Virus record (IMG/VR): IMGVR_UViG_2541047436_000009
Length of the DNA stretch: 4,968 nt
Source: a virus
Lineage: Duplodnaviria > Heunggongvirae > Uroviricota > Caudoviricetes
Strand: one strand, 5' to 3'
Of the stretch, positions 2,931 to 2,997 are shown in pieces. Below the pieces are notes generated by a model. It saw only the letters and a list, made by a program, of their open reading frames with translations, was not told the origin of the DNA and made no database searches. A program made the position numbers and the translations under genes. Positions within the stretch are counted from its first letter, which is position 1. Each line of letters starts with the position of its first letter.

Positions 2931-2959
2931 ACTATAGGAAATGCCTAATTGCTTGTCAA
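2931..2959 (-). promoter_or_regulatory. PL-like leftward promoter: -35 TTGACA (2959..2954), 17-bp spacer, -10 TATAGT (2936..2931)
   Basis: Near-consensus sigma-70 hexamers read on the minus strand, overlapped by operator palindromes. It is positioned to drive the leftward operon (ydfA-like through dicF, dicB, ydfD). Confidence 0.6.
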
Positions 2960-2997
2960 TAGGCTACGCCTAATGATTTGGGTGCGACCTAATAGGT
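2935..2997. promoter_or_regulatory. OL-like operator array: TAGGA-AAT-GCCTA (2935..2947), TAGGC-TAC-GCCTA (2960..2972), and a variant palindrome ACCTA-A-TAGGT (2987..2997)
   Basis: Dyad-symmetric sites centred at about 2941, 2966 and 2992 (25-26 bp apart), the same spacing as the array between racR and ydaS. Sites 1 and 2 flank and overlap the -35, spacer and -10 of the leftward promoter. Confidence 0.55.

Follow-up and report, generated by a model that had tools for sequence, protein, structure and literature searches.

The segment 2931-2972 of the window, by which we mean the whole 4,968-bp stretch of DNA that was analyzed, is very probably PL/OL, the leftward promoter and operator of a lambdoid prophage whose immunity is of the Rac type. 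An OL/PL analogue just downstream of the repressor gene racR had been proposed on reading the DNA, and this proposal is now supported by the operator consensus, by conservation of a promoter-operator cassette between flanks that cannot be aligned, by a mosaic joint with another immunity type and by derepression in K-12. RacR binding at the two operators (OL1 and OL2), the activity and strength of the promoter, cooperativity and the length of the transcript are what we infer here.

Gene layout and the probable leftward promoter and operators

The window corresponds to the early region of a lambdoid prophage and is a mosaic, in which Rac-type immunity is joined to a Qin-type dicBF left arm. The genes that matter for the argument, all on the minus strand, are as follows.

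743..934, minus strand: ydfD-like gene (DUF1482); Pfam DUF1482, E = 2.8e-19
931..1122, minus strand: dicB, cell-division inhibitor; Pfam DicB, E = 7.5e-39; NCBIfam NF049927
1305..1356, minus strand: DicF sRNA; Rfam RF00039, 76.9 bits, full length
2066-2455, minus strand: small phage ORF of 129 aa, function not assigned; PHROG 1363
2467-2637, minus strand: small phage ORF of 56 aa, function not assigned; PHROG 2061
2597..2830, minus strand: DUF1391 gene, ydaG/ydfA-like, which leads the leftward operon; Pfam DUF1391, E = 3.9e-29; PHROG 751
3068..3544, minus strand: racR, repressor of 158 aa; NCBIfam RacR equivalog, 246.8 bits vs a cut-off of 200

An exonuclease gene starts on the minus strand beyond the ydfD-like gene, while the plus strand, divergent from racR, carries a ydaS/Cro-like gene, a ydaT/CII-like gene and a replisome organiser. 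The identities first proposed for racR, DicF, dicB and the ydfD-like gene were all confirmed by NCBIfam, Rfam and Pfam. The minus-strand order of DUF1391 gene, DicF, dicB and ydfD is the layout of a dicBF-type operon (Rfam, Pfam), but such an operon would be expected to be controlled by DicA, and here the neighboring repressor is RacR and the operators are RacR-type. The RacR of the window is 92% identical to K-12 RacR, with 3 substitutions within residues 1-75. No N-like gene was found among the ORFs of the window, using the ORF list and the Pfam and PHROG annotation, and no nutL was noticed. A plus-strand ORF at 1694-1879 (61 aa, PHROG 10133), with a Cys-rich N-terminus (CPAC...CPEH), is convergent to the leftward operon; its slot is occupied by sieB in K-12 Rac and by a 171-aa ORF in O157 prophages.

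The regulatory elements on either side of racR are listed next.

2931..2936, minus strand: -10 hexamer of PL, TATAGT, from the promoter scan; 17-nt spacer, predicted +1 near 2924
2935..2947, no strand: OL1, RacR-type operator TAGGAAATGCCTA, at about -23 to -11, matching at 9/10 half-site positions
2954..2959, minus strand: -35 hexamer of PL, TTGACA, from the promoter scan; TTGAC is invariant in 87 unique cassettes (see below)
2960..2972, no strand: OL2, RacR-type operator TAGGCTACGCCTA, at about -48 to -36, a perfect match to the consensus
2987..2997, no strand: palindrome ACCTAATAGGT, RacR half-sites in inverted order (CCTA-A-TAGG)
3031..3054, minus strand: 8-bp hairpin with no U tract, 14 nt past the racR stop codon; a similar one is present in K-12 despite sequence changes
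3574..3641, plus strand: OR array, with operators at 3574-3586, 3599-3611 and 3625-3637; mirror image of the PL cassette
3612-3617 and 3636-3641, plus strand: PR/PydaS, TTGACA, 18 nt, TAATAT, from the promoter scan

The PL promoter begins 109 bp beyond the racR stop codon, lies on the strand of racR and reads away from it. As originally predicted, it is a near-consensus minus-strand promoter (TTGACA, 17 nt, TATAGT), which matches the consensus at 11/12 positions and is the top-scoring promoter in the whole window. However, 8.7% of dinucleotide-shuffled versions of the window contain at least one 11/12 match, and there is no enrichment of promoter-like sites (6 vs 7.7 expected). Taken by itself, the promoter match is thus weak evidence and was dropped as a stand-alone argument; what carries weight is the operators and the way they are aligned with the hexamers.

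The pattern TAGG-N5-CCTA occurs at five sites in the window (2935, 2960, 3574, 3599 and 3625), compared to 0.02 expected; all five flank racR, and this number was reached in 0/200 shuffles. In K-12, the RacR operator was defined by DNase I footprinting at the racR-ydaS intergenic region as (T/A)TAGGC-N3-GCCTA(T/A) (PMC9638921), and one such operator covers the ydaS promoter (TTGACA, 18 nt, TAATAT), the start of which was mapped by primer extension (PMC9638921; see also PMC5700373). The sites in the window are thus a RacR operator set, i.e., inverted repeats of this consensus beside a RacR gene. Measured against that consensus, OL1 (ATAGGA-AAT-GCCTAA) has one deviation, while OL2 (ATAGGC-TAC-GCCTAA) has none. 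OL1 occupies the promoter spacer and overlaps the -10 hexamer by 2 bp, the last TA of the operator, and OL2 adjoins the upstream side of the -35 hexamer. A PL/OL should have at least two copies of the OR-type operator overlapping its promoter, and OL1 and OL2 are two such copies, at 2935-2947 and 2960-2972, in agreement with the original prediction of two operator sites over the promoter.

Two further details of that prediction hold in part. Measured from start to start, the left-hand sites are 25 bp apart and the intervals of the right-hand array are 25 and 26 bp, so that the 25-bp spacing said to be shared by the two sides applies to one right-hand interval and not to the other; a repeat finder independently returned the same five operator copies (spacing 25, 614, 25 and 26). 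The interval proposed was 2931-2997, of which the part up to 2972 contains the operators and the promoter, while 2973-2997 has no canonical operator.

The left and right cassettes resemble each other beyond the operators themselves. A 26-nt inverted repeat, 88% identical, relates the PL -35/OL2 block (2953-2978) to the PR OR2/-35 block (3593-3618). Judged by its sequence, the PL unit, which consists of an operator, TTGAC(A), 6-7 nt, a second operator and a -10 hexamer that starts in the last TA of that operator, is the ydaS (PR) promoter copied in inverted orientation.

This arrangement suggests how the switch would work. In the lysogen, RacR dimers would occupy OL1, in the spacer and touching the -10 hexamer, and OL2, adjoining the -35 hexamer, probably in a cooperative manner; bound RacR would occlude both hexamers and so exclude sigma-70 RNA polymerase from the leftward promoter. 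Upon depletion of RacR, PL would fire from a start near 2924, and the transcript would comprise the C-rich leader, the DUF1391 gene and the small ORFs. DicF would be cut out of this transcript, which would run on to dicB, the ydfD-like gene and the exonuclease gene.

Several smaller elements lie close to the cassette or within racR. The center of the palindrome ACCTAATAGGT is 26 bp from the center of OL2; the palindrome is kept in K-12 and in E. ruysiae, and the block 2987-3003 is 84% identical to K-12, compared to 48-64% on its flanks. It was considered as a third operator and rejected, the best registers against TAGGC-N3-GCCTA being 7/10 and 6/10 and out of phase. Where lambda and P22 have three operators (OL1-3), two canonical sites are present here. 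The hairpin at 3031-3054 may be a 3'-end stabiliser, or else part of a terminator that separates racR transcription from PL. An exact 13-mer, GGGTTGGTATGGG, is found both at 2915-2927, at the start of the PL leader, and at 3304-3316, in codons for the Pro-rich linker of racR, where ~0.006 repeats of this type would be expected by chance within the 871-bp stretch; K-12 holds the racR copy, and its leader copy is degenerate. A weak operator-like palindrome, TAAGCATTGCTTA (3538-3550), extends across the racR start codon and is the counterpart of the K-12 O3 site. In other genera this start-codon palindrome reads TAGGCAATGCTTA, and it is kept even in betaproteobacteria.

Conservation of the cassette and the immunity boundary

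RacR homologues were gathered and aligned, and 23 genomic loci with a RacR-type HTH were fetched. The HTH half of the protein is almost invariant in the alignment, and the C-terminal half is variable. At 16/23 loci there were exactly two cassettes of the form TAGGCnnnGCCTA, TTGAC(A), 6-7 nt, TAGGCnnnGCCTA, followed by ATAT or TAGT. In all 16, the PR cassette precedes the repressor gene and is on the other strand, and the PL cassette follows the gene on the gene's own strand. These two-cassette loci include Mixta, Morganella, Proteus, Erwinia, Achromobacter, Burkholderia, Pigmentiphaga and Herbaspirillum. Across the genomic loci, which range from Escherichia to Burkholderiales, the DNA flanking the cassettes is unalignable.

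A scan of viral contigs with the pattern operator plus -35 hexamer returned 120 loci. A RacR-type HTH together with two cassettes was present at 92 of the 120, with the same geometry in 90/92, these being counts in which many contigs are close relatives and not independent events. When the 87 unique cassettes were compared, conservation was confined to the half-sites, TTGAC and TAa.aT, and did not extend to the flanks. In every related locus, the final TA of OL1 also opens the -10 hexamer, which reads TATAGT in 62, TAATAT in 19 and TAACAT in 6.

These patterns bear on whether the cassette does anything at present. Its 88% identity to the PR block as an inverted repeat would also be seen if it had arisen by duplication of the PR region and now persisted, without current function, as an inert remnant in a prophage undergoing decay, and many such prophages are cryptic. 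We consider the chance of this close to negligible: the hexamers and half-sites are intact in 90/92 viral contigs and in two proteobacterial classes, while the flanks have diverged past alignment, and identity to K-12 is far higher inside the cassette than beside it.

Another possibility is that OL1 and OL2 serve mainly as a distal operator that loops to OR over a distance of ~640 bp, which would make repression of PydaS tighter and adjust the autoregulation of racR, with the hexamers adding little transcription. Lambda CI and PaaR2 of CP-933P each act through OL and OR sites that are far apart, and each forms octamers (PMC8630535). The distance is indeed nearly constant, as the seeds of the PL and PR cassettes are 644-646 bp apart in viral contigs, but this is accounted for by the conserved racR gene that lies between them. 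Furthermore, TTGAC and the -10 hexamer are as conserved across genera as the half-sites, and a pure looping site needs neither; the cassette is always directed away from the repressor gene and into the operon; and the genes downstream of it are derepressed in K-12 (see below). Looping as the main role is therefore improbable, while it could well be an added role of a working PL rather than an alternative to it.

Consistent with the assignment as PL/OL, the promoter is located downstream of the repressor gene, on its strand, and reads into the early-left operon. The genes that follow a RacR-type PL in related contigs are kilR (23), DicF with dicB (19), dicB alone (6) or neither (36), so a division inhibitor under such a promoter is common, although not universal.

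Two groups of related loci differ around the repressor gene. Eleven RacR prophages of the Klebsiella type have a 384-aa gene between racR and PL, on the strand of the repressor gene and in the position of rexAB in lambda. The N-terminal domain of its product matches HSDR_N, the N-terminus of type I restriction R-proteins (E = 1.9e-14), and a PADLOC search gave no match for the gene. At eight betaproteobacterial loci, the repressors are ~365 aa long and combine a RacR-type HTH with a different C-terminal half, which in one of them (L069) is a Peptidase_S24 (LexA-like) domain according to Pfam; these loci retain TAGGC-N3-GCCTA as the operator, and their PR and PL cassettes are the same. Recombination thus appears to have paired the DNA-binding/operator module with more than one kind of C-terminal half.

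The distribution of the leader among E. coli genomes provides a further line of evidence. The leader is present in ~3,700 genomes. Some 2,600 genomes match the spacer only over 2831 to ~2925, and in two of these a LexA-family repressor was found in place of racR. These LexA-type prophages share the DUF1391 gene and the leader up to ~2925, with ~90% leader identity, and then diverge. Past this point they have their own -35 hexamer (TTGAC, at the aligned position) and a spacer palindrome, GGTAAC-N4-GTTACC. The divergence from ~2925 indicates that immunity-specific DNA begins at the predicted +1. A joint at this position is what would be expected if 2931-2972 is the immunity operator-promoter and 2831-2925 the common left-operon leader. 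Thus, as for a PL/OL, a different immunity comes with different operators in the same place.

Derepression in K-12 and the reach of the predicted leftward transcript

No complete E. coli genome matched the whole length of the window, the best match covering 79% of it at 94% identity. O157:H7 genomes nevertheless carry the racR-DUF1391 spacer (2831-3067) at 100% identity, and racR, the PL spacer and DicF-dicB occur together in at least one prophage of O157. Compared to the racR-ydaG spacer of K-12 Rac, the identity is 81%. The K-12 spacer is a direct homologue, with the same -35 hexamer, -10 hexamer and OL2 and with an OL1 that differs by one base, whereas the operon behind it is ydaG-ydaF-(sieB)-kilR-ydaE-racC-recET and here contains DicF-dicB-ydfD. 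Over the 42-bp cassette, identity to K-12 is 92.9%, compared to 33-64% in the adjoining spacer segments. The three cassette differences fall in the N3 center of OL2, in the spacer and at the degenerate half-site position of OL1.

Published expression data from K-12 are therefore informative about this homologous spacer. When a foreign C protein lowers RacR, ydaC, kilR and ralA rise >70-fold and ydaF, ydaG, ydaE and racC ~40-fold (PMC6765115; PMC11014345). When Cascade was placed at racR +3 or +58, racR RNA fell 20- or 11-fold, respectively, and ydaG, ydaE, kilR, racC, recE/T, ralR, xisR and intR were derepressed (bioRxiv 10.64898/2026.09.06.749655). A roadblock within racR should cut read-through, yet the leftward genes rise, which excludes read-through from the racR promoters and requires a separate RacR-repressed promoter downstream of the block, a reading that is ours rather than that of the authors. 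The Rac recombination genes have been known since 1973 to undergo zygotic induction (cited in PMC5917428), which also points toward a RacR-repressed leftward promoter. One line of published work attributes the silencing of kilR to Rho, acting at a terminator within racR on transcripts from the racR promoter (PMC4150792). We found no description of a promoter or of RacR sites downstream of racR in the literature searched, and older subscription literature may hold one; a literature search for RacR ChIP-exo/SELEX returned nothing relevant.

How far the leftward transcript would extend depends in part on its leader.

2831..2926, minus strand: predicted 5' leader of PL, 95 nt, with a C-rich, G-poor start and unstructured

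The first 40 nt of the leader contain 17 C and 4 G, and this start is rut-like in composition and resembles a Rho loading site. The leader folds no better than its shuffles (z = +0.42), and in an Rfam search of the window DicF was the sole match; in view of both results, the idea of a structured put- or nut-like leader RNA was dropped, and we prefer to describe the leader as rut-like and unstructured. Simple scans of the minus strand revealed no intrinsic terminator from 2925 to DicF and no good internal promoter in 2900-1360, where the best candidate scored 9/12. The 3' end of DicF is a hairpin followed by a T-run (1296-1304). In Qin, this hairpin and T-run are reported to stop part of the transcripts (Faubladier et al. 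1990).

There is, consequently, a real if minor chance that PL is RacR-repressed as proposed but that its transcript ends before DicF, dicB and ydfD, through Rho acting in the leader or in poorly translated ORFs or at the DicF hairpin, in which case other promoters or anti-termination would serve DicF and dicB. The rut-like, unstructured leader is in keeping with this, as are the T-run after DicF (1296-1304) and the convergent ORF at 1694-1879. In K-12 Rac, kilR is silenced by Rho (PMC4150792), and Rho and NusG limit its expression (PMC12482147), so that transcripts from a rut-like leader may stop early here as well. Moreover, K-12 is viable when racR, the intergenic region and ydaS are deleted (PMC5700373), although PL should then be unrepressed; derepression of PL in that strain is thus not lethal alone. 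On the other hand, the distal K-12 genes kilR, racC, recE/T, xisR and intR rise along with ydaG when RacR is lowered. The region from ydfA to dicF in Qin is, in addition, a single transcript from dicBp, with no internal promoter found (bioRxiv 10.1101/2023.04.14.536235), and the best promoter on the minus strand of 2900-1360 here was the 9/12 candidate above. We therefore favor a transcript that can reach DicF, dicB and ydfD, while its reach to dicB and ydfD is the least secure part of the original prediction. Together, the rut-like leader, the hairpin and T-run of DicF and the viable K-12 deletion suggest that RacR is not the sole silencing layer; RacR is probably the primary one.

Related switches and the probable left half of the Rac-type switch

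Functionally, the element is the equivalent of lambda PL/OL, and the closest characterized cases are dicBp/DicA of Qin and PL933P/PaaR2 of CP-933P. As in lambda and P22, the repressor gene is followed by a sigma-70 promoter, predicted here to be strong, that reads away from the gene in the same direction and is overlapped by PR-type operators; as in lambda, this promoter would drive an early-left operon with recombination genes and a host-division inhibitor (kil in lambda). The operator centers are 25 bp apart here, close to lambda, in which they are 23-24 bp apart. Conversely, RacR is of another HTH family and its operator, TAGGC-N3-GCCTA, is 13 bp long, its Escherichia form is without the S24 autocleavage domain, and there are two canonical operators rather than three, OL1 lying within the spacer and OL2 immediately before the -35 hexamer.

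Qin has the same layout, running from the repressor gene through the promoter, the DUF1391 (ydfA-like) gene, small ORFs, DicF, dicB and ydfD to the exonuclease gene. There, DicA represses dicBp 22-fold, and DicF is processed from a polycistronic transcript (bioRxiv 10.1101/2023.04.14.536235). The two differ in that Qin uses DicA and its own operators, whereas here the repressor is RacR with TAGGC-N3-GCCTA sites, and the operon opens with a Rac/ydaG-type leader and first gene. In CP-933P of O157:H7, PL933P was likewise identified through -35 and -10 hexamers identical to those of PR and through repeated operators, and GFP fusions show that PL933P, with OL1-3, is regulated by PaaR2 and the Cro-like YdaS (PMC8630535). 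CP-933P differs in its repressor (PaaR2), its operator consensus (GTTTAGTAA), its three operators and a toxin-antitoxin pair between the repressor gene and PL.

A broader interpretation can be offered tentatively. The RacR-type HTH and the 45-bp cassette of operator, -35 hexamer, operator and -10 hexamer may form a portable immunity module common to phages of Enterobacterales and Burkholderiales, in which the cassette is used twice, inverted around the repressor gene, and the C-terminal half can be exchanged (the RacR C-domain in Escherichia, S24 in betaproteobacteria). RacR might then loop its own gene across ~640 bp, and in EHEC a non-SOS repressor might directly set one virulence-implicated copy of DicF. 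Since Escherichia RacR is without the S24 autocleavage domain, SOS inactivation is unlikely.

A PL/OL at this position is an ordinary, expected component of a lambda-like phage. What it adds is the missing left half of the Rac-type switch, as published RacR work covers the racR-ydaS intergenic region only. A RacR-repressed PL would explain why the leftward arm, from ydaG to intR, is derepressed even with racR transcription blocked, why recE shows zygotic induction and why kilR is harmless when deletions take racR together with sieB-ydaG. It would also place DicF and DicB under RacR in such prophages, the O157 prophage included. The gain is a precise, testable site and a correction to the usual picture of how kilR and DicF-dicB are silenced in RacR-type prophages.
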